Below are positions 2,993 to 43,918 of a stretch of 63,705 nucleotides of DNA, piece by piece (position 1 is the stretch's first letter; every line of letters starts with the position of its first letter). A program made the position numbers and the translations under genes. This stretch comes from Candidatus Shapirobacteria bacterium CG_4_10_14_0_8_um_filter_39_15. GTDB lineage: Bacteria > Patescibacteriota > Microgenomatia > UM-FILTER-39-15. Location of the stretch: positions 1 through 63,705 of the forward strand of contig PFLE01000008.1 in NCBI GenBank assembly GCA_002784465.1. Direction: 5' to 3'. Under the pieces are notes generated by a model. That model was not told where the DNA came from, ran no database searches, and was given only the letters and a program-made list of their open reading frames with translations.

Positions 2993-5375
2993 TGGAAAAT
3001 ATAAAATTAAATATTACCGGTATGCATTGTGCTTCATGCGCGCTGCTCATAGAAAGATCCTTAAAAAAAGTAGAAGGGGTAAAAGAAGCGAGTGTTAATT
3101 ATGCGGCTGAAAAAGCCCTTGTCAATGCTAGAGAGGGGGTTTTGGCAGAAGCCCTTATTCAAGCAGTCAAAAATGCCGGTTATTCCGCGACTGTTTTTGA
3201 TGAAAAAAATACCCAATTTGAAAGCCAAAAGCGGCAAGAAGAAATAAACGCCCTTTGGAATAAGTTTAGGATAAGCCTCATTTTTAGTTCTCCGATGATT
3301 TATTTTATGCTTTTTGATTTTTTCCCTGGTTTAATCGGCGCGAAATCGTTATTACCGTTCGTAGGAATAGTCTCCTTAATTCTTGCCACCCCGGTACAGT
3401 TTATTATTGGAAAAGATTTTTATAAAGGAATGTGGTCGGCTTTGCGGATGAGAACTTTTAATATGGATTCATTAATTGCGATCGGTACATCCGTGGCTTA
3501 TTTTTACAGCATTATAAATTATGGAGCATATTATATCGCAAACAAGACTTTAATCGGTTTAATGGGGCAAAAAATTCCCGAGCTCTATTTTGAAACCGCC
3601 GCCTTTTTAATTACGTTCGTGGTTCTGGGAAAATTCCTTGAGGCGAAAGCAAAAGGAAGGACTTCGGAAGCAATAAAAAAACTGATGGGGCTTCAGGCGA
3701 AAACCGCAAGGGTAATTGGGGGTGATAAGGGAAATAAGGGAGATATTCCAATCGATCAGGTTGAGAAGGGAGATATTATTTTGGTAAGACCGGGAGAAAA
3801 AGTTCCGGTTGATGGAATAATAAAGAAGGGTTCCTCGGCGGTTGATGAGTCAATGATTACCGGAGAAAGTATGCCGGTGGAAAAAACCGTTGACAGCCGG
3901 GTTATCGGGGGAACGATAAATAAAAATGGCAGTTTTGAATTTATGGCCGATCGGGTTGGTGGAGAAACGACTCTTGCCCAGATCATTCGCTTAGTCGAAG
4001 AAGCCCAAGGATCAAAAGCACCGATTCAGGGAGTGGCCGACAGAATATCTGCCTACTTTGTGCCTGCTGTTATTGGTATAGCCATTTTAACCTTTGGAAT
4101 TTGGTATTTTGCGCTTGGTGCTTCATTGTCTTTCGCCCTAATGGCTTTTACTTCGGTAATCGTCATCGCTTGTCCGTGTGCTTTAGGGTTAGCAACTCCT
4201 ACTGCAATTATGGTTGGAACCGGTAAGGGCGCGGAAAACGGGATTCTAATCAAAGGGGGGGAACCATTGAAATGGCCGGGAAAATTGACACGATTATTTT
4301 TGATAAAACGGGAACGTTAACTAATGGTAAACCAGTTGTTACAGATGTTATTCCCGTAGAAGATTCTTCGCCTTCGGCTCAGAATGACATTCTACAGTTT
4401 GCCGCCAGTTTGGAAAAACAATCGGAACATCCGCTGGCGGAGGCGATTTATAACTATGCCAAAGAAGAAGGAATCAAATTTGAGGAAGTTAAAGATTTCA
4501 AGGCGATTCCCGGAAAGGGCGTGTCAGGAAAGATGGGGAAAATCAGGGTTGATTTGGGAAACAGAGAAATGATGAAAGGGAATGGAATTACGATCGGGAA
4601 AGAAACAGAGTTAGAGATGGAAAAATTAGAAAATCAGGGGAAGACGGTAATGATGATTGCTGTCGATAAAAAACTGGCTGGTTTAATTGCGGTTGCCGAT
4701 ACAATTAAGGAAACAACGCGGGAAGCGATTGAAAGATTGGAAAGAAAGGGAATTGATCTGTACATGATAACCGGTGACAATCAGCGGACCGCGAAGGCAA
4801 TTGCCTCGCAAGTCGGAATAGAGGCGGATCATGTATTTGCAGAAGTACTTCCAGAGGGGAAATCAGAAATAATTAAAAATTTAAAATTAAAAATTAAAAA
4901 TTCCCATCGAAGATGGGTTGCCATGGTTGGTGATGGGATAAACGATGCTCCGGCATTGGCTCAAGCGGATTTGGGAATTGCCATGGGATCGGGAACGGAT
5001 GTGGCCCTGGAAACCGGCGGGATTGTGATTATGAAGAATGATTTAAGGGATGTTAATCACGCGATCCAGCTGGCGAAAGAAACCATGGGAAAGATTAAAC
5101 AGAATATGTTTTTTGCTCTTTTTTATAACGTGATGGGGATTCCGATTGCGGCGCGGGTTTTCTCCGGTGTTGGAATTATTTTACGGCCGGAGTTGGCAGG
5201 TTTGGCCATGGCCTTAAGCTCAATTTCTGTTGTCAGCAACTCCTTATTGCTGCGCAATTACCGACACGGTAAGGTTAACTATCTTTCGGCGGTTGCACCG
5301 GCAGCGATGATCCTTATTTTTTCTTTGTTGTTTTTCCAATTTGCCCGTTTAAGCTCGACAACGATACGAAAGTGA
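2992..5375 (+). pseudogene. copA: copper-translocating P-type ATPase CopA, split into ORFs 2992..4320 and 4272..5375 by a -1 frame change at a G7 run
   Basis: HMA motif [14 protein letters not shown] motif ([11 protein letters not shown]), DKTGTLT in the second ORF, and GDGINDAPAL. The frames join if the G7 run at 4255-4261 is read as G8. Confidence 0.85.
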
Positions 5376-13081: not shown

Positions 13082-13274
13082 AATATAAAGGTAAAAACCT
13101 TGATTCTCGCTAATCGCTCGAAATAAAGTCTTCACTCTGGAATCTTCAGGAAACTAAATTGCGATAAATTGCTATAATGTTATATTGCTAGAATGTTAGA
13201 TTGAGGTTTCTAGTCTTCTTTATACGGCAAGCATTATAACAATATAGCATTGTAACATTCTAACATTTTTACTT

Positions 13275-13874
13275 ATGCTTAAACTTAACGCTAAAGAACT
13301 TCGGACAACGATTGCTACTGAAGAGCAAAAAAAATCTATTAAAAAGAACCCAATTTATATTATTTTGGACAATGTTTTGGATACTTATAATGTGGGATCA
13401 ATTTTCCGGCTGGCTGACGCTGTTGCTGCCGAGAAAGTTTTTTTATGCGGGGAAACTCTGACGCCGCCGAATACCAGAATAAAAAAAGCATCGATTAATA
13501 CGACTGAATGGGTCGAATGGGAGTATTGTAAAACAGCGGGGGAAGCGATTGAAAAATTGAAGACATGTCATTCCGAACGGAGTGAGGAATCTAGCGAAGT
13601 GCATAAAGAAGATCCTTCCCTGCCTACGGCAGATCAGGATGACACGATCAAAGTTATTGCCGTTGAGTTGGATGAAAGAAGCGTGCCTTATGATAAAGTG
13701 GAATACAAATTTCCCTTGGCAATAGTCGTAGGGAATGAGACATATGGGGTGAGTAAAGAAGTTTTGGAGATGGCGGATGAGATTGTGGAATTACCGATGT
13801 TTGGGGTAAATAAAAGTTTAAATGTGATGGTTTCGGTAGGAATTATTCTTTACAAACTGACGGAGAAATTGTAA
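13275..13874 (+). CDS. TrmH/SpoU-family RNA 2'-O-methyltransferase with an in-frame repeat insertion
   Basis: Motifs YNVGSIFRLADA, VVGNETYGVS and LNVMVSVGIILY. The element at about 13567-13642 encodes HSERSEESSEVHKEDPSLPTADQDD. Confidence 0.8.
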   Translation: MLKLNAKELRTTIATEEQKKSIKKNPIYIILDNVLDTYNVGSIFRLADAVAAEKVFLCGETLTPPNTRIKKASINTTEWVEWEYCKTAGEAIEKLKTCHSERSEESSEVHKEDPSLPTADQDDTIKVIAVELDERSVPYDKVEYKFPLAIVVGNETYGVSKEVLEMADEIVELPMFGVNKSLNVMVSVGIILYKLTEKL

Positions 13875-18996: not shown

Positions 18997-19039
<43 letters not shown>

Positions 19040-19482
19040 TAAGCATGCAAGTGGAACGCCCGCGCAAATCTCGCAAGAGATTTGTTCGGGAGTCGCAGAC
19101 GGGTGAGTAATAGGTAGGAATCTACCTCGAAGCGGGGAATACCTATCCGAAAGGATAGCTAATACCCCATATGGTCCCGCACCATACGGTGCAGGAGCAA
19201 AGGATGTAACTGTCCGCTTTGAGATGAGCCTACTTCCTATCAGCTAGTTGGTGAGGTAATGGCTTACCAAGGCTTTGACGGGTAGGGGGCGTGAGAGCGC
19301 AATCCCCCACAAGGGCACTGAGACACGGGCCCTACTTCTACGGAAGGCAGCAACTGGGAATTTTGCACAATGGACGAAAGTCTGATGCAGCAACGCCGCG
19401 TGAAGGATGAAGGTTTTCGGATCGTAAACTTCTTTTGCCAAGGTTGAGAGACTTTGGCGAATAAGCACCCGCTAACTACGTG

Positions 19483-20337
19483 AGGTTTTGAAAGAAAAAC
19501 GTCGGCACGTAGGTTATCAATCTGGCTATATGCTGGAACACTTGGTTAATATTTGACTACTAAAGCAAACCTTGCTACAGTGAAAATGTCGAATAAACCC
19601 GAAAAAATGACCGCAGATCATATATGGGTATCAAGCTATCAGCAGGCAACCCCCCGTCTGACGGGGGAGAGTCCTCAGAGACTATACGCCAGAGTCCGAT
19701 GTTAATATCGGACAAGATATAGTCCAAGAAGAAAAATGGAATATCTCTTGAAACAAATTCTTATTGGTTCACTACTCGGGGATGGACATCTAACACCATT
19801 AAATAAGAAAGGTTTGTCTCAATTATACTTAAAGTATGATGATAAAACTCTTTCTTATCTGGAATGGTTACACAAGATGTTTATTCCGATTAAGACTAAT
19901 GAGATTAAAGAGAGATCAAAAGGTGGTTATCATCAACACTACTTTACTACATTGCCAAGTTTGGAACTGGGTTATTATCGGAAATTGTTTTATCCGTTGG
20001 GTAAGAAATCAGTACCGGAAAACATCTCCAAATTATTAACTCATCCTATTGCTTTGGCAATATGGTATATGGATGATGGAACGTTGGATTTCCGCAAGAA
20101 ATACCATCGTAATGCCTCTTTTGCAACATTTTGTTTTAGCTTCAAAGAATGTGAGTACCTGCAAAAAATGCTAGAGAGAAATTTCTCTATTCGGGTAGGT
20201 ATTCACAAAACCACAATGAGGGAAAAGCTATATTTTCGTTTATATGTCAGATCAGAAAGCATGGATTGTTTTCTGTGTTTGATTGGAAAATATATTCATC
20301 CCGTTTTTAAATATAAGGTTCTAATAGCTAAAACTCA
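19483..20337 (+). mobile_element. 16S intron 1 (group I-like core), inserted between GCTAACTACGTG and CCAGCAGC (about E. coli 517/518)
   Basis: Core TCAGAGACTATACG ... GATATAGTCC at 19676-19724. The boundaries lack the canonical terminal G. Confidence 0.7.
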
Positions 20338-20353
20338 CCAGCAGCTGCGGTAA
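19736..20353 (+). CDS. LAGLIDADG homing endonuclease (double motif)
   Basis: LLGDGHL and WYMDDGTL motifs. The ORF runs 16 nt into the downstream 16S exon. Confidence 0.85.
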   Translation: MEYLLKQILIGSLLGDGHLTPLNKKGLSQLYLKYDDKTLSYLEWLHKMFIPIKTNEIKERSKGGYHQHYFTTLPSLELGYYRKLFYPLGKKSVPENISKLLTHPIALAIWYMDDGTLDFRKKYHRNASFATFCFSFKECEYLQKMLERNFSIRVGIHKTTMREKLYFRLYVRSESMDCFLCLIGKYIHPVFKYKVLIAKTHQQLR

Positions 20354-20609
20354 TACGTAGGGTGCAAGCGTTATCCGGATTTATTGGGCGTAAAGCGTTT
20401 CGTAGGTGGTTTAATAAGTCATATCTTAAAGACCAAGGCTTAACCTTGGAAATGGGTCTGATACTGTTAGACTAGAATTTTGTTGGGGATGCTGGAATTC
20501 CCGGTGGAGCAGTGAAATGCGTTGATCTCGGGAGGAACACCAATGGCGTAGGCAGGCATCTGGGCAATGATTGACACTGATGAACGAAAGTTAGGGGAGC
20601 GAAAGGGAT

Positions 20610-21417
20610 TAATTTTAGTCCCCCTAGGTAGCAATATCTAGGAAAAAACTGGCTATATCGGTGAAACTCCTTGTTGTTTCGGGTATTATTTGGTATTATG
20701 GAAACAATGAGGACAATACCGAGGGAAGTCGGTTATTTTGAGGGTAGACGATAGAGGTTAGAAGTTGGAATTTGAAGCCTGCCTGCCGGCAGGCAGGTTA
20801 GAAAATAGAAGAAAAATTGATAAAATAAAAATGTGATAAAAACATTTCGTGATTTAGAGGTATACACGGAGTCTTACCAGTTAATGTTAATTGTACATGA
20901 AGGAGTTAAAAAATTCCCTGTGTATGAAAGGACAGATTTGGCTCCGCAAATGAGAAGATGTTCGAAATCACCTCCGGCAAATATCGCCGAAGGTTGGGCG
21001 AAGAGAAATTTTGAAAAAGAATTCAAAAAACATTTAGGGACGGCAATTGGTTCCTGCAACGAAATGGAAGTTCACATTGAAACAGCACGAGATTTAGGTT
21101 ACTGGGATAAAGAATTTTGTCAATCTCTTCTTAAAAGATACCAAAATGTAGGAGGTAAATTAAATAACCTCCGAGAAAATTGGAAAACATACTAACTTCA
21201 ACTTTCTACCATCATAATCTAATTTCTAGTTTCTATTGTCTATCTTCAATTTAATCTGACCCCGTAGAGACTGTACGCCGGTCCCGAGCTTAGCTCGGGA
21301 ATGATACAGTCCGAACTATACAGTAATGTATAGATCTCTAAAGAAATTTAGAGGCGCCCCGCACCGTATGGTGCAGGGTTAGTATCCCGATTTGTGTCGG
21401 GAGAAAGTAACAAAATG
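20610..21417 (+). mobile_element. 16S intron 2, group I, at GGGAT|TAGAGACC (about E. coli 788/789)
   Basis: The 5' exon ends in U and the intron ends in G. Core GTAGAGACTGTACG ... GATACAGTCC. Confidence 0.8.
20833..21195 (+). CDS. four-helix-bundle protein (23S rRNA intervening-sequence protein / Avd-like family)
   Basis: LEVY...SYQL ... QMRRCSKSPPANIAEGWAKR ... GSCNEMEVHIETARDLGY pattern. Confidence 0.8.
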   Translation: MIKTFRDLEVYTESYQLMLIVHEGVKKFPVYERTDLAPQMRRCSKSPPANIAEGWAKRNFEKEFKKHLGTAIGSCNEMEVHIETARDLGYWDKEFCQSLLKRYQNVGGKLNNLRENWKTY

Positions 21418-21504
21418 TAGAGACCCCTGTAGTCCTAACTGTAAACGATGCTCGCTAGATGGCCCCGTCTGACGGGGTTGTCGTAAGCTAACGCGTTAAG
21501 CGAG

Positions 21505-21537
<33 letters not shown>

Positions 21538-21680
21538 TAAAGGAATTGACGGGGAGGCGCACAACCAGGGGAGCGTGTGGTTTAATTCGAGACTAAACGA
21601 AGGACCTTACCTAGGTTTGACATGCTAGAAGTAGCTTCCGGAAACGGATAGTCACCCGTTAAGTCGGGGACTAGCACAGC

Positions 21681-21717
<37 letters not shown>

Positions 21718-21784
21718 CGGCTTTAGTGCCGGAACGAGCGCAACCCCTACTATCTGTTAAATATTCAGATAGGACAGCCCCGTC

Positions 21785-21914
21785 TCTTTTTCGCATCAGC
21801 TAACAGAATAAGATTTGAAATAAAGATTTATTTTGTTAGAAGATCGCGACGCTAGCCCGAATAGGGCTGGGCTATTCGCCCACGCGTCGCGGTATGAGAT
21901 TGGCGCGAAAAAGT
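21785..21914 (+). other. 130-nt expansion segment in the 16S (tip of the helix before GGAGGAAGG)
   Basis: Flanked by CCCCGTC / GACGGGG. Its ends are self-complementary (CTTTTTCGC / GCGAAAAAG). No intron core motifs. Confidence 0.7.
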
Positions 21915-22142
21915 GACGGGGAGGAAGGAGGGGACGACGTCAAGTCAGCACGGCGCTTATGTCTAGGGCAACACACACACTACAATGGATCGGACAACGA
22001 GTTGCGAGCGCGCAAGCGTAAGCTAATCTCTTAAACCGATCCTCAGTTGGGATTGCGGGCTGTAACTCGCCCGCATGAACCCGGACTTGGTAGTAATCGC
22101 GGGTCAGCAAACCGCGGTGAATACGTTCTCGCCTCTTGTACA

Positions 22143-23038
22143 AAATAAATGCGCTTGGCAGTTTAGAAAACTAAGTGGTGAAAATCCACTTTTATAGAGA
22201 AATCATACTTAGAAATTAGATTAAGGATATGATTTTTATATATCTGTCACAAATGTTGTGACAGCTATAGTTGCGGACAGTCTTGAGGGGTAACCCGAAG
22301 GATGAAGGGTCCTATATACAAAGAGCAGTCCTCTTTTCAAAAGGGCAATAACGATCTGATTATGTGTACAGCAGAGAAGTTATTTTAAAAACCCAGAGGA
22401 ATGTTTGAAAAAGTTTTTTAAATGACCCAAGGAGATCCTGTGTGCATCAGAACTATAATCGGCCACAGGAAGTCAGCTGAGTCCATAGTAAGTAAAACTT
22501 GACAGGTCTATAAATAGTATCTAAATTAGAGATAGACCCGAAGCTTTACCGAAGGGACGAACTATATGTTAAATCCTCATTATATTGTCGGATTTGTTGA
22601 TGGCGAAGGATGCTTTAGTGTGTCCATAAGCCGAAAACGATTTCGAATACCTGAGGTTAGACTCAAATTTGAAATTGAGCTTAAAGGGGATGACGAACCA
22701 ATTCTGAAAGAGATCTAAAAATTTCTAGGTTGCGGATCAATCTACCATTTGGAATATAAAAAATACAAATGGGGACCGCATGCGAAATTTATGGTTGGTT
22801 TACAGAAAGATCTTATTAATAAAATAATACCTTTCTTTAAAAAATATCCTCTTCAGGCAAAAAAGAGAAAACAATTTGAGTTTTTCTGTAAGGTCGAAAA
22901 CATGATTCTTAAAGGGGAACATAGAAATCTTGAAGGAATTGAGAAGATAAGATTAATGAGAGAAAAACAACATATAGACTCGCTGGATGCGCTAGACGCG
23001 CACGTCCAGTGGGGCGTGGAATAGTTCTTAACCATGAT
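22143..23038 (+). mobile_element. 16S intron 3, between TTGTACA and CACCGCCCGTC (about E. coli 1396/1397)
   Basis: Joining the flanks restores the universal TGTACACACCGCCCGTC. The intron class is uncertain (no terminal G). Confidence 0.65.
22566..23024 (+). pseudogene. LAGLIDADG homing endonuclease (single-motif type) with an in-frame TAA
   Basis: MLNPHYIVGFVDGEGCFSV...ILKEI, then a stop at 22716-22718, then KFLGCGSIYH... in the same frame. The ORF track shows only 22749..23024. Confidence 0.7.
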
Positions 23039-23127
23039 CACCGCCCGTCAAATGAGCAAAGTCGGGGGTGCCTGAAGCTCCTGCTTAGCAGGAATGAAGG
23101 TAAACTCGGCGATGAGCATTAAGTCGT

Positions 23128-23836
23128 AAACTTGTTGCGACCTGCAATCGTAAGAATGCAGGAAAATCTAACTGTATCGGTGAAGCCTAAATCCGCCAGC
23201 TGGCGGATACGGTAATACCGAGGGAAGCTTGTTTCGGTAAAACAGTTGAACAGTTAAACAGTAAGACAGTAATCAGTGTAACGGTAATATGTTAGACTTA
23301 GTTAATGGCAACTATTTGGAGTGTTAAGCAACTTAGGGTATATCAGCGGCCATTGAAACTTTTGCCGCAATTGTATGATCTTGCTTATTCACTTCCAGTG
23401 ATTCGCCAAAAATTAAGAAAACAGATCATTAATTGCGGGGAAGGAATAGCCCCGTTGATTGCGGAAGGATTTGCTAAAAGAAGAAATGAAGCGGAAGTAA
23501 AAAGATTCTTCGAAATGGCAATGGGAGAGAGTGATGAATTAGCTACTCACCTAGAGCAAGTCAAAATTCTGGCAAATCGGTTTAAGAGTGTTAGAGTTGA
23601 ATTGTGTCAAAAGTTAATTGAAGAATACACAATCGAATCAAAAGAACTCTATAACCTTATTAAAAATTGGAATAATCATCCAACAAAATGATTTACCGTT
23701 TTACTGACTACTGTTTTACTGCAATACTGTTTAACAGATTTACAGATTCATAGCCCCGTAGAGACTACACGTTGGCCCCAGCTCAGCTGGGTGAAGATAT
23801 AGTCCATGCCTCGATGAAAATCGAGGAACACCAATG
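23128..23836 (+). mobile_element. 16S intron 4, group I, at AAGTCGT|AACAAGG (about E. coli 1498/1499)
   Basis: The 5' exon ends in U and the intron ends in G. Core GTAGAGACTACACG ... GATATAGTCC. Confidence 0.8.
23305..23691 (+). CDS. four-helix-bundle protein (IVS-protein / Avd-like family)
   Basis: LRVYQRPLKL ... INCGEGIAPLIAEGFAKR ... GESDELATHLEQ pattern, inside 16S intron 4. Confidence 0.8.
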   Translation: MATIWSVKQLRVYQRPLKLLPQLYDLAYSLPVIRQKLRKQIINCGEGIAPLIAEGFAKRRNEAEVKRFFEMAMGESDELATHLEQVKILANRFKSVRVELCQKLIEEYTIESKELYNLIKNWNNHPTK

Positions 23837-24033: not shown

Positions 24034-24202
24034 GTTGTGATAAAATTCTACGCAAGGGCTGCTGGTTCCCTAAAAACACTTCGGTGTTTTGAGGGTAAAC
24101 ATCGGCTTGCACTAAAAATTTGTTTCGACAAATTTTCAGTGCAGAACGCTTTCCTGATGACGGTTGAATTTATTAACCGATATATAAGTTGCGAATAAAA
24201 AG

Positions 24203-24411
24203 GGGTCGCTAGCTCAGTTGGTTAGAGCGCATTCCTGATAGCTAGCGCTTTGCGCTAGATATATCAGATGTAATTTATGGGCTACTAGTTCATCGGTAGA
24301 ACGCTTACCTGATAAGTAAGAAGTACATGGTTCGATTCCATGGTAGCCCACAAATAAATTACATCTGTTATAAGAATGAGGTCTCAGGTTCGAATCCTGA
24401 GCGACCCACCA
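24203..24411 (+). tRNA. tRNA-Ile(GAU) (A), canonical sequence with encoded CCA but split after position 37 by a 132-nt insert (24241-24372)
   Basis: The exons GGGTCGCTAGCTCAGTTGGTTAGAGCGCATTCCTGATA and AGAATGAGGTCTCAGGTTCGAATCCTGAGCGACCCACCA fold into a perfect cloverleaf. Confidence 0.75.
24279..24350 (+). tRNA. tRNA-Ile(GAU) (B), uninterrupted, innermost
   Basis: 72 nt: GGGCTAC TA GTTC ATCGGTA GAAC G CTTAC CTGATAA GTAAG AAGTA CATGG TTCGATT CCATG GTAGCCC A. Confidence 0.85.
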
Positions 24412-24495
24412 TAGAAATTCGCAACTTCTATAAGAAAGAAGTACCAGGTCCGACTCCTGGGCAGCCCACCCTGGTTTGTTTGGTATTTTTACAAG

Positions 24496-24846: not shown

Positions 24847-25176
24847 ATGAAACACAAATTGTTTTTTACCAAACCTCCTGAACTAATTACTCTTGAACCA
24901 AGAATTAAAAAGCTTTTGGAAAAATATCATTTGGATCAATATTATTCGGTTGAGGATTTGGAGTTAATGATTTATGAATGTTTACCAGAGAACGAATTTA
25001 ATGTTTTTGATCCGGTAATTGAGCATCTTGTTTTGGCAGAGGATAAGGCAGACTTTCTGATTTTTCTGAACAATGAACTTTGGAATGCGACTCCTTTAAA
25101 AATGTTAGGCGGTATATCACCAATACAAAGCATGAATTCTGATCGGTTAAAAGAAAAAAGGGAAGTGATGGATTAG
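24847..25176 (+). CDS. hypothetical protein
   Basis: 109-aa ORF. The C-terminal WNATPLKMLGGISP is reminiscent of DUF2384-type antitoxin C-termini, but this is weak. Confidence 0.5.
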   Translation: MKHKLFFTKPPELITLEPRIKKLLEKYHLDQYYSVEDLELMIYECLPENEFNVFDPVIEHLVLAEDKADFLIFLNNELWNATPLKMLGGISPIQSMNSDRLKEKREVMD

Positions 25177-25214: not shown

Positions 25215-25280
25215 TTAGTTACTTAAATCTCCTGCAACACCGCAAGGTCTTTGCAGGATTTTTTATGCTATAATTTAATT

Positions 25281-25811
25281 GTGAAGCGTTGCCTTATTCT
25301 AATTGACGGAAGTAATTTTTATTTCAAATTAAAAGATCTTCAACTCCAAAATCTTCTTGAGTTTGATTTTTCTGGATTTACAAAGTTTTTAGTTAGTAAA
25401 AATAAACTTATCAAAGCTACTTATTATGTTGGGGCAATGCGAACCGATGGAACTGAAAGAGCCCAAAGATTGTTTAACGATCAGCGCAAGCTTTTATCCC
25501 ATTTAACAAAACAGGGTTTAAAATATTCTCTTGGATATTTATTAAAATCAAAAAATAAATTTCACGAAAAAGGGGTTGATGTTAATATAGCGGTAGATAT
25601 TCTTGTGGCCGTTTATGAAAACCAATGCGATCATCTTATTTTAGTTTCGTCGGATACTGATCTTTTACCGGAAATCAAAAAAGCTAAAGAAAAAGGCAAA
25701 ACGATTGAATATATTGGTTTTTCCCATCAACCAAGTTTAGCCATGGTTGCTAATTGTACGGAATCAAAATTACTTAAAAAAGAAGAAATTACCCCATTTG
25801 TTAAAAAATAA
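25281..25811 (+). CDS. NYN-domain (LabA/DUF88-like) predicted RNase
   Basis: LILIDGSNFY ... GVDVNIAVDIL ... LVSSDTDLLP. The GTG start at 25281 is preferred over the TTG at 25251. Confidence 0.75.
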   Translation: MKRCLILIDGSNFYFKLKDLQLQNLLEFDFSGFTKFLVSKNKLIKATYYVGAMRTDGTERAQRLFNDQRKLLSHLTKQGLKYSLGYLLKSKNKFHEKGVDVNIAVDILVAVYENQCDHLILVSSDTDLLPEIKKAKEKGKTIEYIGFSHQPSLAMVANCTESKLLKKEEITPFVKK

Positions 25812-25964: not shown

Positions 25965-26528
25965 ATGGAAAACGAAGCTCCTGATAAATCGATTGAACAA
26001 GCTGAAAGAAGAAAAATAGGTTTATATAATAATGGTTATTCTATCGCTGCCCATGAAATCGGTCATGCATTAGTTGTTGACTCAATTTTTAAAGAACGAA
26101 GACATTATGAATTTAAGGTTGAGGTTATACCGGTAGTTAATTGGCGTAATCCAAAAGACCAAATGGGTTTTTATGGTGGAAACTCAAGAATAAGATTAAT
26201 AACCTTGTCGGATCAACTTCCAGTTAACGAAGAACAAGAAAAATTATTTGCGTCCTCAGGTGTTGCCGTCTGTAGGGTTATCGGAAGAAACGAAAATTTC
26301 CAACCACAAGCGCCTGGTAATGATGAAAAAGTTTTTACCCATAAAGGAAAATTTGATTCAGAAGAAGCAGAAAGATACGTAGCCTTGGCAACAAAAATAT
26401 TAGAACCAAATAAGGAGATAATTGACACTGCTGCTAAAAAGATTGCCAAGCAAATTTCCGAAACAACAAAACCTTTTATTCTTGACGAACAGAGGTTAAG
26501 AGAATTCTTAAGGCCAGAAATGGGATAA
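25965..26528 (+). CDS. hypothetical protein with an HExxH zinc-peptidase-like motif
   Basis: AAHEIGHALV motif, 187 aa. Confidence 0.5.
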   Translation: MENEAPDKSIEQAERRKIGLYNNGYSIAAHEIGHALVVDSIFKERRHYEFKVEVIPVVNWRNPKDQMGFYGGNSRIRLITLSDQLPVNEEQEKLFASSGVAVCRVIGRNENFQPQAPGNDEKVFTHKGKFDSEEAERYVALATKILEPNKEIIDTAAKKIAKQISETTKPFILDEQRLREFLRPEMG

Positions 26529-26547: not shown

Positions 26548-26577
26548 TTGACTTCCCCTAATCTCTTTTGTTATAAT
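26548..26577 (+). promoter_or_regulatory. candidate promoter upstream of tRNA-Ala/23S
   Basis: TTGACT, 18-nt spacer, TATAAT. Confidence 0.4.
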
Positions 26578-26743
26578 GCGGTTCACTGGGGAGCCAGAAA
26601 TTAGTAATGAAAATTCTTAAACAAATAATCCAAAACCTTAGGCGATTTTTGCGTGCGTAAATAGGAATTTTCAGTATCTTTTGAAGCTCCATTGGGAGCT
26701 CTATTTGTTTTTGCACATTATTTAATGGAACTCAAGGACAGAC

Positions 26744-26955
26744 GGGCCAATGGCTCAGTTGGCTCGCACTGAAAAATTGCGAACAATTTTTTAGTGTAAA
26801 TGCCTCGTTTGTTTAGCCCGTAAGGGCTGTTAGCTTAGCTGGTAGAGCGTCGCGTTTGCAACGCGAAGGTCGCCAGTTCGAATCTGGCACAGTCCACCAG
26901 TGAGGCCCTTTACGGGCCATCGAGGAGGTTAGGAGTTCGAGTCTCCTTGGGTCCA
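26744..26955 (+). pseudogene. outer tRNA-Ala-like shell, interrupted in the D region and anticodon loop
   Basis: Cloverleaf parts:
- acceptor GGGCCAA / TGGGTCC with G3:U70
- TGGCTCAGTTGG D-arm start
- anticodon stem CCTCG / CGAGG with loop TTTG...CAT (TGC if joined)
- intact T arm AGGAG TTCGAGT CTCCT. Confidence 0.55.
26824..26899 (+). tRNA. tRNA-Ala(UGC), uninterrupted, CCA encoded
   Basis: GGGCTGT...ACAGTCC acceptor with G3:U70, anticodon loop TTTGCAA, T loop TTCGAAT. Confidence 0.9.
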
Positions 26956-26964
26956 CTGGGGCTA

Positions 26965-27067
26965 GTCATTCTGAACGAAGTGAAGAATCTAGCGGGATGT
27001 ACCAGACGGTACGTCCCGAAGCGAATTGCGCTGCGGCTAGATCCTTCGGCCGATGCCTCAGGATGAC
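26965..27067. repeat. GTCATTC...GAATGAC composite palindromic element (family P3)
   Basis: GTCATTCTGAACGAAGTGAAGAATCTAGC ... GGGATGTACCAGACGGTACGTCCC ... GCTAGATCCTTCGGCCGATGCCTCAGGATGAC. Confidence 0.75.
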
Positions 27068-27684
27068 GATTAATTTTTGCGGTTGACGATTATTTTTTAA
27101 AATAGAAATTAATCGTCAGCTGAAAAAAGCTGGATGGTACCTTAAAAAGTGAAGAGAAAATATATAAGTAGGCCCTCCGATGCAAATCGGAGGAAAAGGT
27201 CTTAAACAGCTTAGTTTTTATTAAAGCAAGTGGTGGATGCCTTGGTAACAAGAGCCGAAGAAGGACGCAGTCGGCAGCGATATTCGTCGGGGAGGAGTCT
27301 AACATCCTTTGATCCGGCGGTTTCCGAATAGAGTAATCTCCTCGTAAGAGGGACTTGCACCATACGGTGCGAGTAGGGAACTGGGCGAACCGAAACATCC
27401 AAGTAGCCCAAGGAAAAGAAAATAATAATGATTCCGTCAGTAGCGGAGAGCGAAAGCGGAACAGCCTAAACCCGAACAAATCTCGCAAGAGATTTGCGCG
27501 GGTGTTGTAGGGTCTCATTATGGGAGTATTAAGAATAGTCAAACGGTGTGGAATTGCCGACCATAGAGAGTGAAAGTCTCGTAGACGAAATTCAAGATAC
27601 CTCTAGAGATACCTAAGTAACTCGAAGCACATACTTTGAGCGAATCTGGGGCAACCATGCTCCAAGGCTAAATACTCTTGTTGT

Positions 27685-27726
<42 letters not shown>

Positions 27727-27785
27727 CCGGTGAGGGGAGTGAAATAGAACCTGAAACCATTTGCTAACAAACAGTAAGAGCATCT

Positions 27786-27918
27786 CGTTTCCACTCGATG
27801 CTTAAGTCAAAAGTAAAAAGTTAAAAATCAAAAGTACAAGTAAAAATTAAAAATATACAATTGAAATTTTGACTTTTGCATTTTGAATTTTGCATTTGAA
27901 CACCGAGTGGAGGCGAGG
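27786..27918 (+). other. IVS/expansion at the helix-25 site of the 23S
   Basis: An AT-rich palindrome made of AAAAGTCAAAAG words replaces the short helix between AGTAAGAGC and GTGATTACGTGCC. Confidence 0.65.
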
Positions 27919-28486
27919 TGTGATTACGTGCCTATTGAAGAATGAACCGGCGAGTTCTCAATTACTGCATTAGTTTAAGCCGCTAATTACGGCTCAAGCG
28001 TAGCGAAAGCAAGTCTGAATAGGGCGTAATAAGCAGTTGTTGGGAGACCCGAAACCTGGCGAGCTAACCATGAACAGGGTGAGCCCCGATGAAAGTCGGG
28101 GGGAAGCCCGAACTCGTTGTCGTTGCAATGACATGAGATGATTTGCGGTTAGGGGTAATATGCCTAACGAGCCAGGAGATAGCTGGTTCTCCCCGAAATA
28201 TATATAGGTATAGCGTCCGTTAAACTTTTCCGGAGGTAGAGCACTGAATGGGTGTGGTAACGCAAGTTATTATACTCAATCAAACTCCGAATGCCGGAAA
28301 AAGATTTACGGGCAGTCAGAACGGTGGGTCTAAGCTCATCGCTCTAAAGGGAAACAACCCAGATTTCCATCTAAGGTCTCTAAATTTCTGTTAAGTGTTA
28401 AAGGAAGTGTTTTTCCTCAGACACCCAGGAGGTTGGCTCAGAAGCAGCCATCCTTGAAAGAAAGCGTAACAGCTCACTGGACGACA

Positions 28487-28605
28487 GCTCTCCTTCGCTT
28501 TTTGCTCCGAAAAAGCTACGGGACGAGCACCCTCTCTAATTAACAAAGGAGAGCGAGTGCCCTTCCGAAGCTTCGAACGAAGTAAGAAGCGGAGGAGGGT
28601 GGAGA
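28487..28605 (+). other. IVS/expansion at the helix-45 site of the 23S
   Basis: An extra segment of about 120 nt after AGCTCACTGGACGA and before TGCGCCTAAAACG. Confidence 0.6.
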
Positions 28606-29487
28606 AATGCGCCTAAAACGTATCGAGGCTAAAACAGAATACCGAAGATGAAGAACTTGTGTAAAGCACAAGGAATTCAAAAGTCAAAAGTTTTATTCTG
28701 AAGGTTTATTAATTTTGAATTTCTCATGCTTTGCATGAGTTGGTAGGGGAGCGTTGATACTGCAGTGAAGCCGAGCTGTAAGGCAAGGTGGAGCGGTATC
28801 AAGTGAGTATGCCGGTATAAGTAGCGAGATCCCGGTGAGAAACCGGGACGCCGAATACCCGAGGTTTCTCCGACAATGCTAATCAGTCGGAGGTTAGTCG
28901 ACCCTTAGGTGAGTCCGAGCTTAGCTCGGAGTAGCCGATGGATAAACTGTTAATATTCAGTTACAGAGAGTGAATCGTTACCAACTGGGGATTGACAGGG
29001 ATGGATAGCCAAACCCGCCGCAAGGCGAGCTTAAATCACAAGGCAGTTTTTGTAGGAAAACCCGCAAAAACGTTTACACTGCAAAGTGTCTAACCGAATG
29101 ATGAATAAGAGTCTAAGCCGCAAGGCAAGGACAATTTGGTAATTTCAACCCTCAAGAAAAGATTCGCAGTGAGATTCATTTTTTATCGTACCGAAAACCG
29201 ACACAGGTGGGTTGGTAGAGTATACCAAGGCGGACGAGAGAAGGAAGTTCAAGGAACTCGGCAAAAAAGCTGGGCGTAAGTTATGCAAGATGCCCTACTC
29301 CGATTTATCGGAGTTCAACAAAAGATTTTCAAGCGACTGTTTAACTAAAACACAGGTCTCTGCAAACCCGCAAGGGTAAGTATAGGGGCTGAAGCCTGCC
29401 CAGTGCCGGAAGGTTATGGGGAGGAGTGAGTCGCCGTAAGGCGACAGGCTCTGAACTTAAGCCCCGGTGAACGGCAGCAGTAACTAT

Positions 29488-29968
29488 GAATCGAAAGGTG
29501 TTGTAGTTGTTAAACTTAGCTATATGCTGGAATAACTCGTGTATCCGACAGTACCCCGTTACCATACGGTACAGGGTGACAATCTGTTCGGTGGAGTCAA
29601 TCAGCAGGAAAGGCTTTGGTAAATTAAAATCAATGTCATTCCCACGTTTACCCTGTAAGGGAAAGTGGGAATCTATATCAAAAAAGGAGTAAAACAGTAA
29701 ATCAGATAATCAGGTTAAGTAAATCTGAGAACAGAATATCAGTAGTAAAAACTGATCCCTGTTTTCTAATCTCTTTTCCCGATACTCTGATCAACTGATA
29801 ATCTTAATTGTGTTATATAGATTCCGGCTCGTAGGCCGGAATGACAAAATAAAAATTATCAAAGAATCCTCAGAGACTATACGCTGAGACCGAGCTTAGC
29901 TCGGGATGATATAGTCCGACCTTCAGTGCGAACTGAAGAACCGTAAAATCGGTCTAGTAACAAAGGTG
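29488..29968 (+). mobile_element. 23S intron 1, ORF-less group I, at AACTAT|AAC in helix 69 (about E. coli 1917)
   Basis: The 5' exon ends in U and the intron ends in G. Core TCAGAGACTATACG ... GATATAGTCC. It carries a P1 and a P3 repeat internally. Confidence 0.8.
29689..29806. repeat. family P1 palindrome nested inside 23S intron 1
   Basis: AAAACAGTAAATCAGATAATCAGGTTAAGTAAATCTGAGAACAGAATATCAG ... CTGATCCCTGTTTTCTAATCTCTTTTCCCGATACTCTGATCAACTGAT. Confidence 0.7.
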
Positions 29969-30488
29969 AACTGTTCGATGGTAGCGAAGTCCCTCGCCAG
30001 GTAAGTTCTGGCCCGCATGAAAGGCTTCACGACTTGAAAACTGTCTCGAACTTCCACTCGGCGAAATTGAAATGGCTGTGAAGATGCGGCCTACGCATTC
30101 TTGGACAAAAAGACCCCGTGGAGCTTTACTATAGCTTGGTGTTGGAATGATGTTTGAAATTGTGCAGTGCAGGAGGGAGTCTCGACGCAAGTCGGACGCC
30201 AATGTAACACCTCTCTTTTTAAACCTCAAACCTTACCTGTGAGTTCTGGAAACGAACTCGGGGAACGCGCCAGGTGGGTAGTTTGACTGGGGCAGTCGCT
30301 TGCTAAAGAGTAACGCGAGTGCACAAAGGTTGGCTAGTCTCGAACGGAAATCGAGATGATAGTGTAAAGGCAAAAGCCAGCTTGACTGTGAGGCCGACGG
30401 GCCAAGCAGAGTCGAAAGACGGTCTTAGTGATCCTCCAACTCGTCGTGGGACGGTTGGGGCTTAACGGATAAAAGCTACCCCGGGGAT

Positions 30489-30782
30489 ACAACTGTGTCC
30501 CGTCTTGGTGAATATAAAAATACCAGGACTTGTATGCAACTAATAACGGTGGAACCCGCAACTGGAGAGTTTTAAGTAAAAGTCTTCTCTCGCGAGGCAG
30601 CCAAGGGTAATACCGTGGGAAGTCCGGCTTTGCCGGACCCCGTAACGACTGATTCCGAAAGGATGAGATATAAATTACTTCCCAAAAGGGAAAATCTACA
30701 ATTTATATCATACGTTGCCTCCCATAAAATTTTATATGGGATGAAGATATAGTCTGCGCTTACAGAAATGTAGGATTTTGTG
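30489..30782 (+). mobile_element. 23S intron 2, ORF-less group I, at GGGGAT|AACAGG (about E. coli 2449, peptidyl-transferase ring)
   Basis: The 5' exon ends in U and the intron ends in G. Elements ATAACGGTGGA, AATACCGTGGGAAGTC, CCCGTAACGACTG, GAAGATATAGTCT. Confidence 0.8.
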
Positions 30783-30844: not shown

Positions 30845-31650
30845 CAATTTTAGGGTCGCTACCCGAGTAATCGAGTAGATTAATACGAGCTCATAACGGT
30901 GGACTCCAATTGCGATATAATTATCGTAAATGGACAATACCGTGGGAAGTCGACAAAGAGATATTATTTTTGGAATGCTATTAGGTGACGGATTTTTAGA
31001 ACGCAATGGAAAATATGTCAGATTGGTAACTGACCATAGCGGAAAACAAGAAACTTATGTTAATTGGTTAGCAAGCCAATTAACTAACTTAAATCCGAAA
31101 TTAGTTTTTAAGAAAAGAATTGATCGAAGAAACCTGAAAGTTTACGATCATTGTATTTTAAGAACCAACACTTCATCTAAGTTGGAAAAATTCTTTTCCT
31201 TATTTTATGAAGGTAAAAGAAAAAGAATTCCACCTTGTTTAAGTAAAATAATATCTCCAATGGTGTTAGCGGTTTGGATAATGGATGATGGATACAAAAG
31301 AAATGATTGTCGGGCAATGAGAATAAATACCCAAAGTTATACCTTGGAAGAACAGAAAATTATCAGACAATCGTTTCTTCGTATCGGTATCAAAGTTAAT
31401 ATCCATAAACAAAAACAGCACTATTTGGTTTATATTCCATCTTCTTATATGAAGAAATTTATAGGAATGATTAAACCCTATATTATTCCTTCTATGGAAT
31501 ATAAAATTTGTTTGACCCCGTAACGACTGATTCCGAAAGGATGAGATATGAGATTTATCTTGTATCACACGCTCGTCCCCGCGCAAATTTCTGAAGAAAT
31601 TTGTTCGGGTGAAGGTATAGTCTGCACCATTAGTAATAATGGATTATGTG
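30845..31650 (+). mobile_element. 23S intron 3, group I with a LAGLIDADG ORF, at GTCGGCT|CATC (about E. coli 2511)
   Basis: The 5' exon ends in U and the intron ends in G. It has the same core word set as introns 2 and 4. Confidence 0.8.
30930..31523 (+). CDS. LAGLIDADG homing endonuclease (double motif)
   Basis: MLLGDGFLE and WIMDDGYK motifs. Confidence 0.85.
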   Translation: MDNTVGSRQRDIIFGMLLGDGFLERNGKYVRLVTDHSGKQETYVNWLASQLTNLNPKLVFKKRIDRRNLKVYDHCILRTNTSSKLEKFFSLFYEGKRKRIPPCLSKIISPMVLAVWIMDDGYKRNDCRAMRINTQSYTLEEQKIIRQSFLRIGIKVNIHKQKQHYLVYIPSSYMKKFIGMIKPYIIPSMEYKICLTP

Positions 31651-32864: not shown

Positions 32865-33017
32865 GTGTCTCGGTGACTAGAGCGGACTGGTACCACTCTT
32901 TTCCCGTCTCGACTCGGTCGAGCCGAGGCGGGCCATTCCGAACAAGATAGTTAAACGGTCTAGCGTCGACGATAGTAGAGCCTTGTGTTCTGCGAAAATA
33001 GATCGTTGCCGAGACAC
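32865..33017 (+). rRNA. 5S rRNA with a 30-nt hairpin inserted in loop C
   Basis: Helix I GTCTCGG / CCGAGAC, then CCATTCCGAACAAGATAGTTAAAC, GCGTCGACGATAGTAG and TGCGAAAATAGA. The extra hairpin lies at 32903-32932. Confidence 0.8.
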
Positions 33018-38036: not shown

Positions 38037-38420
38037 TTGTGTTTCTCTTTAAGTGAGGAGTGGTATGCTCGCACTAAAAAATCGTCGACACGATTTTTCA
38101 GTGTAAAGGCAGGTTTAGCCCGTAAATCGCGAATTATAACTTCGGCTTTAACGGGGAGGGTGGTGTGTAGGGCAGGCGCACTACCTTCCACATTGAAGCA
38201 GAGTGCGATTTTACGGGCCGTGTTGCCTCTCACCTAGAGACAAACAAAGTCAGGGCTTGACCCCAGTAGAACACTTACTTGCTCCCAAATACTACGTGTT
38301 TGCGTCGCAAGAGCGTGTCTACGGGGCTGCGCAAAGAAGTCGGGACTTGACAACATAGGTTAACTCTTGTTAAATAAGGTTAGTTAGTTTTCCTTCGTTT
38401 CCATGATTCTTAATTTTCCT
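38037..38420 (+). ncRNA. ORF-free structured region upstream of rho (leader or unidentified ncRNA)
   Basis: It contains the same hairpin-TAAA module and the TTTAGCCCGTAA...TTACGGGCC clamp found in the tRNA-Ala nest. I found no RNase P or tmRNA signature motifs. Confidence 0.35.
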
Positions 38421-43366: not shown

Positions 43367-43918
43367 ATGGCTGGTTATGAAAGTCTTCTTGTTTATCGTT
43401 TAGCTGTTACAATTTTCGATTTTGGTAATATTTTTTGTCAAGAATTCTTAAAAGATTTAAAATATCGAAGAACAGTAGAACAAATGGAGCAGGCGAATCG
43501 TTCTGGAAAACAGAACATTGTTGAAGCTTCTCTCGAAAAGAGCATGGAAGGGAATATTAAATTAACTGGTGTTTCTCGGGCAAGCTACGGGGAACTAATG
43601 GAAGATTTTAAAGACGATCTTAGATTAAGAAACCTGCCGATTTGGGATAAAAATGATCCTCGAGTATTAAAAATTCGATCATTTAAGGAATCTGTAGAAA
43701 ATCCTACTAATTTGACAAATTTGTCAAATTGGACCAATTTGGATTTTACTAATCCTGAGAATTTTGCTAATATGATGATCTGTCTAATTTATAAACAGAA
43801 TTATCTTTTGGATCAGCTTTTACGCAGTCAGGAAGAAAAGTTTGTTAAAGAAGGTGGTTTCAGAGAAAACTTATTTAGAAAAAGAAGAGAATATTTAAAA
43901 AACAATTCGGGCCCGTAG
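43367..43918 (+). CDS. four-helix-bundle protein with a suffix domain
   Basis: LLVYRLAVTIFDF ... EQANRSGKQNIVEAS ... SRASYGELMEDF, with C-terminal KFVKEGGFRENLF. The stop codon lies inside the first 10 nt of tRNA-Ala(GGC). Confidence 0.7.
   Translation: MAGYESLLVYRLAVTIFDFGNIFCQEFLKDLKYRRTVEQMEQANRSGKQNIVEASLEKSMEGNIKLTGVSRASYGELMEDFKDDLRLRNLPIWDKNDPRVLKIRSFKESVENPTNLTNLSNWTNLDFTNPENFANMMICLIYKQNYLLDQLLRSQEEKFVKEGGFRENLFRKRREYLKNNSGP

Follow-up and report, generated by a model that had tools for sequence, protein, structure and literature searches.

Here we describe a small insertion in which a complete transfer RNA (tRNA) gene sits inside the two halves of another. The stretch of DNA analyzed (hereafter, the window) is contig PFLE01000008.1, 63,705 nucleotides (nt) long, from a member of Candidatus Shapirobacteria (Patescibacteria; candidate phyla radiation [CPR]); it contains a ribosomal RNA (rRNA) operon. 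Between the 16S and 23S genes of this operon, a 106-nt insertion (26812 to 26917) splits a degenerate tRNA-Ala(UGC) (hereafter, the shell; 26744 to 26811 plus 26918 to 26955) between anticodon bases 35 and 36 (TTTG^CAT, with the caret marking the junction). The insertion in turn consists of an intact tRNA-Ala(UGC) bounded by complementary ends that form a clamp. We consider it likely that this Ala nest is a relic, devoid of any open reading frame (ORF), of a nuclease-associated mobile element that carried a replacement tRNA and landed in a resident tRNA-Ala(UGC) gene, and that the shell is dead.

Anatomy of the Ala nest

The nest is made up of the following parts.

26744 to 26811, + strand: 5' half of the shell, a presumably dead tRNA-Ala(UGC), with acceptor strand GGGCCAA, D-arm start GCTCAGTTGG, the hairpin of the next line, CCTCG, and TTTG (positions 32 to 35)
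26767 to 26796, + strand: 30-nt hairpin in place of the 3' D stem of the shell, 13 bp with a CGAA loop, which folds perfectly
26812 to 26823, + strand: 5' end of the inserted element, TTTA plus the clamp strand GCCCGTAA (26816 to 26823), abutting base 1 of the inner tRNA
26824 to 26899, + strand: inner, intact tRNA-Ala(UGC), scoring 70.7 bits with the Rfam tRNA model and called by ARAGORN, with G3:U70 and an encoded CCA
26900 to 26917, + strand: 3' end of the inserted element, GTGAGGCCCT plus the clamp strand TTACGGGC (26910 to 26917)
26918 to 26955, + strand: 3' half of the shell, with CAT (positions 36 to 38), CGAGG, variable loop AGGTT, T arm, acceptor strand TGGGTCC, and discriminator A, and lacking CCA

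A first-pass annotation of the window had listed the intact tRNA, the clamp, the shell halves, and the hairpin, and all of them are present as listed; the insertion, which it had placed in the anticodon loop along with a clamp stem, falls exactly between bases 35 and 36. Junctions were placed by reading the sequences, since ARAGORN tolerates so many variants that brute-force splicing of all cut pairs is too permissive. The clamp joins AGCCCGTAA (26815 to 26823) to TTACGGGC (26910 to 26917) through eight Watson-Crick pairs (GCCCGTAA/TTACGGGC), with the leading A unpaired; the 3' end of the element (26900 to 26917) can alternatively fold as a local hairpin, GGCCC-TTTAC-GGGCC. The inner tRNA-Ala(UGC) is presumed to be both the cargo of the element and a working gene. 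The 106-nt insertion contains no ORF, and no recombinase lies within or adjacent to it. A search of 26650 to 27050 against Rfam at E values of up to 10 returned the tRNA model alone, with no group I intron or other known family in the insertion.

The shell shares its anticodon with the inner tRNA, and the two differ in most stems. Its acceptor stem (GGGCCAA/TGGGTCC) pairs at 6 of 7 positions, keeping G3:U70 and mismatched at A6.G67. The D arm has GCTC-AGTTGG but no paired stem, the 3' strand being replaced by the 30-nt hairpin. Once joined, the anticodon arm reads CCTCG-TTTGCAT-CGAGG—a 5-bp stem and a 7-nt loop with anticodon TGC—and the T arm (AGGAG-TTCGAGT-CTCCT) is perfect and has the conserved loop.

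The Ala locus was found in ten independent assemblies (from NCBI, ENA, JGI, and Logan), six with the exact nest and four with one single-nucleotide polymorphism (SNP), which excludes an assembly artifact. This SNP, C>T at 26913 (C in the window, T in the four assemblies), lies in the 3' clamp strand, where it turns a G-C pair into G.U, a small hint that the pairing matters.

The shell as a former tRNA

With 26812 to 26917 and the hairpin deleted, ARAGORN (default settings) calls the shell as a tRNA-Ala(tgc) starting at 26744; with only the insertion deleted and the hairpin retained, it makes no call. As a control, random splice constructs were drawn from the window and submitted to ARAGORN, counting only calls that span the junction, which arose in 5 of 20,000 constructs. 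In intron mode on the native sequence, ARAGORN reports the inner tRNAs only. The Rfam tRNA model, run on 26918 to 26975, aligns 26918 to 26955 to model positions 35 to 71 as a 5'-truncated match (19.5 bits, E value of 0.022; gathering score, 29), and this alignment begins exactly at the junction. Run on the 5' half alone, the covariance model gives no match; that half is too degenerate.

On the expectation that the shell would score as tRNA-like, the outcome was divided: the tRNA finder calls it once the insertion and the hairpin are both deleted, the 3' half scores 19.5 bits, below the gathering score of 29, and the 5' half fails to match. Together, the ARAGORN call, the random-splice control, and the 3'-half match uphold the proposal of a real tRNA inside a degenerate shell that shares its amino-acid identity, and they support the conclusion that the shell behaves as a split tRNA-Ala. 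Judging from its lost D stem, inserted hairpin, and mismatched acceptor, the shell can probably no longer make a tRNA and appears to be decaying.

A three-level nest at the tRNA-Ile locus

The tRNA-Ile locus of the same operon is also nested, in three levels.

24056 to 24157, + strand: 5' half of the outermost Ile shell, degenerate, with two D-loop hairpin insertions, ending CTTTC-CTGA (A35)
24203 to 24238, + strand: 5' half of the middle Ile shell, ending CATTC-CTGA (A35)
24279 to 24351, + strand: intact tRNA-Ile(GAU) of the innermost level, within a 14-bp clamp, CAGATGTAATTTAT/ATAAATTACATCTG
24371 to 24411, + strand: 3' half of the middle Ile shell, including CCA
24431 to 24470, + strand: 3' half of the outermost Ile shell, its T loop mutated to TCCGACT, with an 11-bp clamp, AAGTTGCGAAT/ATTCGCAACTT, just inside

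The first-pass annotation had recognized an Ile nest built on the same logic as the Ala nest; the nest is real, and it has three levels rather than the two supposed. Each level has its own clamp, both of them (14 bp and 11 bp) perfect, and both junctions are compatible with insertion at A35^T36. The middle shell, when joined (24203 to 24238 plus 24371 to 24411), is a flawless tRNA-Ile(GAU) with CCA according to ARAGORN. The minimum-free-energy fold of the 415 nt from 24056 to 24470 recovers the full nested structure (z = -9.1). That the outer Ile level is the more decayed is expected if levels are added from inside, and across multilevel nests generally the outer levels are more decayed than the inner ones. 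Hairpins resembling the one in the Ala shell (26767 to 26796) occur in the outermost Ile shell and at 38072 to 38105.

Probable gain and decay in syntenic relatives

The 187-amino-acid (aa) ORF just upstream of the Ala nest has no homologs beyond this population (Candidatus Shapirobacteria bacterium CG08_land) and was therefore unusable for locating orthologous spacers; homologs of the S1 protein were used instead. These led to two syntenic loci, L253 and L254, both distant (S1 proteins 51 to 55% identical), whose gene order is 16S, tRNA-Ile, tRNA-Ala(UGC), 23S, 5S, S1, RadA, Rho, LysM peptidase, tRNA-Ala(CGC), and tRNA-Ala(GGC). At the Ala position, L254 shares the ends of the element with the window (5' flank, 12/12 identical; 3' flank, 14/18), and the inner tRNA-Ala is identical at 64 of 76 positions with compensatory changes in stems; the 5' flank is thus more conserved than the tRNA that it adjoins. 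The 5' shell half is identical at 21 of 38 positions, and the 3' shell half is absent.

In L253, the Ile and Ala positions both carry nests of another build, and there is a further outer 5' half. In these nests (1575 to 1700 and 4040 to 4270 of the locus), a clamp GCCCGCCAAAA.../...GGCGGG (starting GCCCGCC) replaces the entire anticodon arm of the Ile and Ala shells, with junctions after position 26 and before position 44, which suggests another element family that inserts differently. In the comparison of orthologous spacers, the nest at the Ala position recurs in both relatives, in L254 with a 5' shell half only, and the element ends are shared with L254. At the Ile position, L254 has a plain tRNA-Ile, preceded by a promoter-like sequence, L253 a half-nested one, and the window a triple nest; the state of the Ala position varies among the three loci, too. 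Overall, the insertion and its ends have been kept, whereas the shell has been lost bit by bit, in a different way in each lineage; this pattern favors gain with subsequent decay and speaks against a functional shell.

Recurrence of nests in public genomes and metagenomes

A general scan for two T loops 38 to 58 nt apart, using one genome per species, gave at least 120 matches, most of them by chance; nests among the matches listed include an Ala-in-Ala nest in a member of Patescibacteria (L076) and Ala (L094) and Ile-UAU (L087) nests in Saccharibacteria. An Ala-specific version of the two-T-loop scan, run on metagenomes, retrieved at least 120 loci. Among the matches listed, at least 86 have an inner tRNA (Ala in at least 80 of these), at least 76 show, on a lenient criterion, a candidate for the outer 5' acceptor strand, and at least 26 are compact nests in which an outer acceptor pairing 7/7 is followed by D-arm sequence. 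Several metagenome loci have three consecutive T arms. A brute-force search for shells around 71 tRNAs, taken from the window and control loci, found a shell of the same identity solely at known nests, and a scan of viral contigs with the 3' flank of the nest retrieved unrelated GC hairpins only.

Because the architecture recurs in the Ile gene of the operon, in syntenic relatives, and at >100 public loci, the earlier suggestion of a mechanism rather than a single accident stands, and related elements, as judged from these sequences, appear to be common in Patescibacteria. Shell and cargo are nearly identical in L134, L140, and L258, consistent with re-invasion of the cargo, and clearly different in the window and L243, consistent with a foreign cassette invading a resident gene.

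Several side observations concern the form of these nests. On the minus strand of L164, four successive tRNA-Ala 5' halves, each ending at TTTG^TCCCGAT and followed by the ORF-less element, lie ~370 nt upstream of the inner tRNA; the stacked halves precede one intact tRNA, after which come a single 3' half and, just downstream, a serine recombinase gene. Extra hairpins occur in the D, T, or variable loops of the dead shells in L134, L150, L176, L257, L258, and L260. Some shell hairpins carry the ends TCCCGAT...ATCGGGA, described below as family B, without an ORF or tRNA, as if miniature derivatives of the element kept targeting tRNA-like sequence. A nested tRNA-Ala(CGC) lies downstream of a gene for the CCA-adding enzyme (47 to 68% identical between loci) at nine loci (L134, L136, L166, L176, L204, L207, L225, L245, and L246), among which the end family of the insertion varies. 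Finally, interrupted tRNA-like pieces surround an intact tRNA at 1020 to 1260 of L128 (Phycisphaeraceae), which may be a nest-like arrangement in a planctomycete, outside Patescibacteria.

Conserved element ends and a GIY-YIG nuclease

Most metagenome nests belong to two end families, here named A and B. Family B has the form anticodon stem-TTYG^TCCCGAT...ATCGGGA^CAW-anticodon stem and is inserted between positions 35 and 36, as in the Ala gene of the window; a hairpin, TCGRGGATCCNCGA, lies inside it, and its leader, CGATAAnnnTGGT, forms pairs with the cargo tRNA's trailer. Family A has the form ...CCCCGTTAGAAAT-tRNA-ATTTCTAACGGGG-CAAG... and looks as if it were inserted after position 37. Junction sequences are better conserved than the tRNAs they flank, and ends that start with CCCG and finish with CGGG recur across families and in the window (GCCCGTAA and TTACGGGC). 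A defined target site is seen both in the window (TTTG^CAT in the Ala gene) and in the nuclease-bearing family (TTYG^CAW).

The lengths of family B insertions are bimodal—126 to 140 nt without an ORF and 392 to 459 nt with one—which is the pattern expected of an endonuclease gene that invades and later degenerates. Clustering of the ORFs around nests yielded a group of proteins of 80 to 100 aa whose genes lie after the outer 5' half and ahead of the inner tRNA, and these are GIY-YIG catalytic domains (Pfam PF01541; E values of 1e-14 to 1e-18). Such ORFs lie within the insertion in L243, L136, L144, L145, L216, L132, L222, and L206, the last of which has the same cassette in a valine tRNA. In L243, where the nuclease is 85 aa long, an intact 5' shell half with TTCG at its end is followed by TCCCGAT; next come ORF, hairpin, and cargo tRNA, and then ATCGGGA, CAT, and an intact 3' half.

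A profile hidden Markov model (HMM) built from the nest ORFs matched 16 times in 671 kb of nest loci and not once in 833 kb of control loci. All 16 matched ORFs are on the strand of the tRNA, and 9 of them lie ≤450 nt upstream of the inner tRNA. As an independent test, a protein database was searched with one ORF, returning matches named Yanofskybacteria, Microgenomates, and Patescibacteria, and five homologs from different genomic contexts were inspected. Although chosen by protein similarity alone, all five have the arrangement 5' half-TTYG^TCCCGAT-ORF-hairpin-tRNA-...ATCGGGA^CAW-3' half.

Proposed origin of the nests

On the explanation that we favor, a small mobile element would have inserted into the resident tRNA-Ala(UGC) between positions 35 and 36, bringing with it a complete tRNA-Ala(UGC) between complementary ends. 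The nuclease would cut intact tRNA genes at or near the anticodon, after which repair could copy the cassette in, as in homing; alternatively, the nuclease might act on the conserved ends. Because the ends are more conserved than the cargo, the nuclease may work on the ends of the element in a transposon-like manner rather than by classical homing. Such an insertion would be tolerated only by supplying a replacement for the gene it destroys. The cargo tRNA keeps the target sequence and so can be invaded again, giving Russian-doll arrays, of which the triple nest at Ile and the stack of four 5' halves in L164 would be examples. The copies in the window, which have no ORF, would then be immobile relics. 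At the RNA level, the nest would be cotranscribed with the 23S rRNA, and the clamp and shell stems would bring its ends together; ordinary tRNA end-processing enzymes would release the inner tRNA, the shell halves being discarded, and the clamp might isolate folding of the inner tRNA from the similar sequences of the shell. More broadly, we are slightly inclined to read the nests as the fossil record of an undescribed selfish element of Patescibacteria, with a minimal GIY-YIG gene, a replacement tRNA, inverted ends, invasion of the anticodon, and re-invasion of the cargo.

Several points weigh against this explanation. HMM searching finds no GIY-YIG ORF in the insertion or anywhere in the 63.7 kb of the window, so that the nuclease link is by analogy; the analogy rests on the same insertion site and on similar CCCG/CGGG ends. 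The ends in the window (TTTAGCCCGTAA...TTACGGGC) differ from those of the nuclease-bearing family, and the ORF is unseen with the end family of the window. The ends of the Ile nest are unrelated, and no Ile nest containing an ORF was found. A GIY-YIG domain of 80 to 100 aa has no obvious DNA-binding domain and no evident way to recognize a particular DNA site, making site-specific cleavage by it conjectural. Strongly conserved ends are unnecessary for homology-driven homing and may instead reflect a role in RNA processing or a transposon-like mechanism. The acceptor and T arms of shells are often still perfect, as some residual role would allow. Lastly, no pair of close relatives, one with an empty and one with an occupied allele, was recovered.

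Alternative explanations

An unlikely alternative is that the nest arose by local duplication or rearrangement (slippage, unequal recombination, or gene conversion) with no mobile element, the nuclease ORFs being passengers. The near identity of shell halves and inner tRNA in L134, L140, and L258 would fit such an origin, as would the four 5' halves stacked with only one 3' half in L164. In the window, however, shell and inner tRNA differ in most stems; the same 35/36 junction and the same ends surround unrelated tRNAs amid unrelated neighboring genes; and all five nuclease homologs chosen by protein similarity are in the nest arrangement.

It is quite improbable that the shell is a working gene, yielding two tRNAs per transcript, with the insertion either excised by a splicing endonuclease of the archaeal type or lost when the inner tRNA is released and the ends are ligated. 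The lack of a D stem in the Ala shell, the 30-nt hairpin in its stead, and the mismatch in its acceptor all speak against it, even though joining the halves of the middle Ile shell gives a faultless tRNA complete with CCA, many shells elsewhere keep perfect stems that differ between loci, and the clamp and anticodon stem would keep the two halves in contact. A bulge-helix-bulge cannot be drawn: the anticodon stem is separated from the clamp by 8 unpaired bases on the 5' strand and 3 on the 3' strand, and there is no 4-bp central helix. Moreover, the insertion site at 35/36 is within the anticodon, and if the inner tRNA were cut out, clamp sequence would stay behind in the anticodon loop. L254 has lost the entire 3' half and kept the insertion, and shells elsewhere carry further insertions in the D, T, or variable loop. 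Covarying shell stems were initially read as a sign of conserved RNA, a reading dropped in view of the loss of shell halves in syntenic relatives and of the nuclease ORFs.

A third possibility, which we regard as very improbable, is that an element with a recombinase of the tyrosine or serine type integrated into the tRNA gene and left the flanking halves as attachment-site duplications. In L164, L201, L208, L229, and L238, a gene for a large serine recombinase does adjoin a tRNA plus 3' half, and in L057 a tRNA-Pro has only a 3' half after it. Integration of this kind duplicates one side, whereas the window has 5' and 3' halves around a complete gene; the insertion measures just 106 nt and neither contains nor adjoins a recombinase gene; and its two junctions lack the repeated core expected of site-specific recombination.

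Chance resemblance of spacer DNA to a tRNA, for which the failure of the 5' half to match the covariance model could be cited, can be dismissed, given the rarity of calls among random splices, the amino-acid identity and anticodon shared with the inner tRNA, the 3'-half match that begins exactly at the junction, and the recurrence of the arrangement in relatives and at >100 other loci.

Setting of the nests in the rRNA operon

The Ala nest lies among other insertions of the operon. The 16S-23S spacer spans 5 kb and holds tRNA-Ile(GAU), several ORFs, and tRNA-Ala(UGC).

18999 to 22192: 16S gene, split by a 1.8-kb insertion with a LAGLIDADG_2 ORF and a 23S-rRNA-intervening-sequence-protein ORF
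22749 to 23691: ORFs in the 16S-23S spacer, a LAGLIDADG_1 fragment and a second intervening-sequence protein
24847 to 25176, 25251 to 25811, and 25965 to 26528: ORFs between the Ile and Ala nests, one with an NYN domain (RNase-like) and two without a family match
26548 to 26577, + strand: near-consensus sigma-70-like promoter (TTGACT, 18 nt, TATAAT, with TG before the second hexamer), proposed from the consensus match alone
27210 to 30529: 23S gene, followed by a LAGLIDADG ORF and then the 5S gene
30930 to 31523: LAGLIDADG_2 ORF in the 23S-5S spacer
32869 to 33014: match to 5S rRNA, 146 nt against a 120-position model

Mobile insertions thus crowd the entire rRNA operon, and the 146-nt length of the 5S match indicates that there may be a small insertion in that gene too. 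The promoter-like motif sits ~165 nt upstream of the Ala nest, and a similar motif occurs upstream in L254. Elsewhere in the window, an ORF at 43368 to 43900, between tRNA-Ala(CGC) and tRNA-Ala(GGC), looks by eye like a 23S-rRNA-intervening-sequence (four-helix-bundle) protein; in L087, a similar-looking ORF ends ~100 nt upstream of the Ile nest.

Outside the operon, the window holds one further module with nest-like flanks.

38060 to 38230: module with a copy of the nest flanks, consisting of the hairpin CACTAAAAAATCG...CGATTTTTCAGTG, GGCAGG-TTTAGCCCGTAA, an 85-nt structured non-tRNA core, and TTTACGGGCC

The hairpin of this module resembles the one in the D loop of the Ala shell. An Rfam search of the module at E values of up to 10 matched no family. 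The module is also found in L254 (~13270 to 13400), in the same place between radA and rho, where L253 has a different helix. Given the same ends at 38060 to 38230, other RNA genes may also serve as targets for the elements.

Relation to known systems

GIY-YIG homing endonuclease genes are either borne by introns, as for I-TevI, or free-standing, as for the Seg proteins of phage T4, among which SegB is encoded in the tRNA gene region of T4. A recent paper deals with SegB (PMC13096335). The nests resemble these systems in having a small nuclease gene in or next to conserved genes, in the neighborhood of tRNA genes, with a patchy distribution among relatives and the coexistence of ORF-containing and ORF-less forms. 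Unlike them, the nests have no self-splicing intron or intein, the host tRNA gene is destroyed, and a whole replacement is carried; in addition, the nest nuclease is just a catalytic domain of 80 to 100 aa, the ends are conserved inverted repeats, and self-invasion produces nested arrays.

In fungal mitochondria, there are mobile endonuclease ORFs that land in a protein gene and supply it with a new 3' end, as in atp6 of Allomyces. There, as in the nests, the element compensates for the damage with a copy of the displaced part, and the original is left as a pseudogene fragment. In Allomyces, however, the 3' part of a protein gene is supplied and fused in frame, whereas the nests supply a complete RNA gene and both old halves remain.

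Some integrative elements target tRNA genes and rebuild the 3' half of the gene. Disruption of a tRNA gene by such an integrating element has been modeled in archaea (Sugahara et al. 2012; PMC3293823). The nests share with such elements the tRNA target, the preference for crossover in the anticodon loop, and the displaced fragments left behind, and some scanned loci show just this. Whereas those elements span kilobases, encode a recombinase, and duplicate one side, the insertion in the window is 106 nt long, lacks a recombinase, and has a shell half on either side. With bulge-helix-bulge introns and split tRNAs, the nests have in common an intervening sequence in the anticodon loop, a helix between the flanks, and anticodon bases pairing with the insertion; they differ from archaeal and eukaryotic tRNA introns in lacking a bulge-helix-bulge, in their site (35/36 rather than 37/38), in their bacterial host, in the full tRNA inside, and in the degenerate outer gene. 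Group I introns, too, are mobile and occupy the anticodon loop of bacterial tRNA genes, but the insertion in the window has no group I core and no Rfam intron match (E values of up to 10) and, at 106 nt, is too short. Insertions in CPR rRNA genes carry homing endonucleases, and by term counts over the source, tRNA goes unmentioned (PMC11270868). These occur in the same organisms and the same operon, LAGLIDADG ORFs being present in the 16S gene and 23S-5S spacer of the window; unlike the nests, they sit in rRNA and are removed or tolerated as RNA.

A search of the full-text literature found no description of tRNA-in-tRNA nests or of cassettes combining GIY-YIG and tRNA; subscription journals fell outside its coverage, and an earlier description is possible. 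The mobile element is apparently widespread in Patescibacteria and undescribed.

Implications

Mobile endonuclease genes survive in essential genes by hiding in self-splicing introns or inteins. The nests seem to represent a third way of tolerating a mobile insertion, in which a full spare copy of the destroyed gene is carried along. The short GIY-YIG proteins are candidates for very compact nucleases, whether sequence or structure specific. The shells escape gene finders, which list the inner copy alone, and both annotation and tRNA counts could be misled as a result. Since the acceptor stem is all that alanine synthetase reads, intact Ala shells might still be charged; this would add a selective cost and could explain the disabling insertions found in shells. 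An element of this kind would also explain the tRNA halves and hairpins that litter the tRNA loci of Patescibacteria, and since each level of a nest would record one invasion, the nests would offer a relative chronology of invasions and decay in these genomes.

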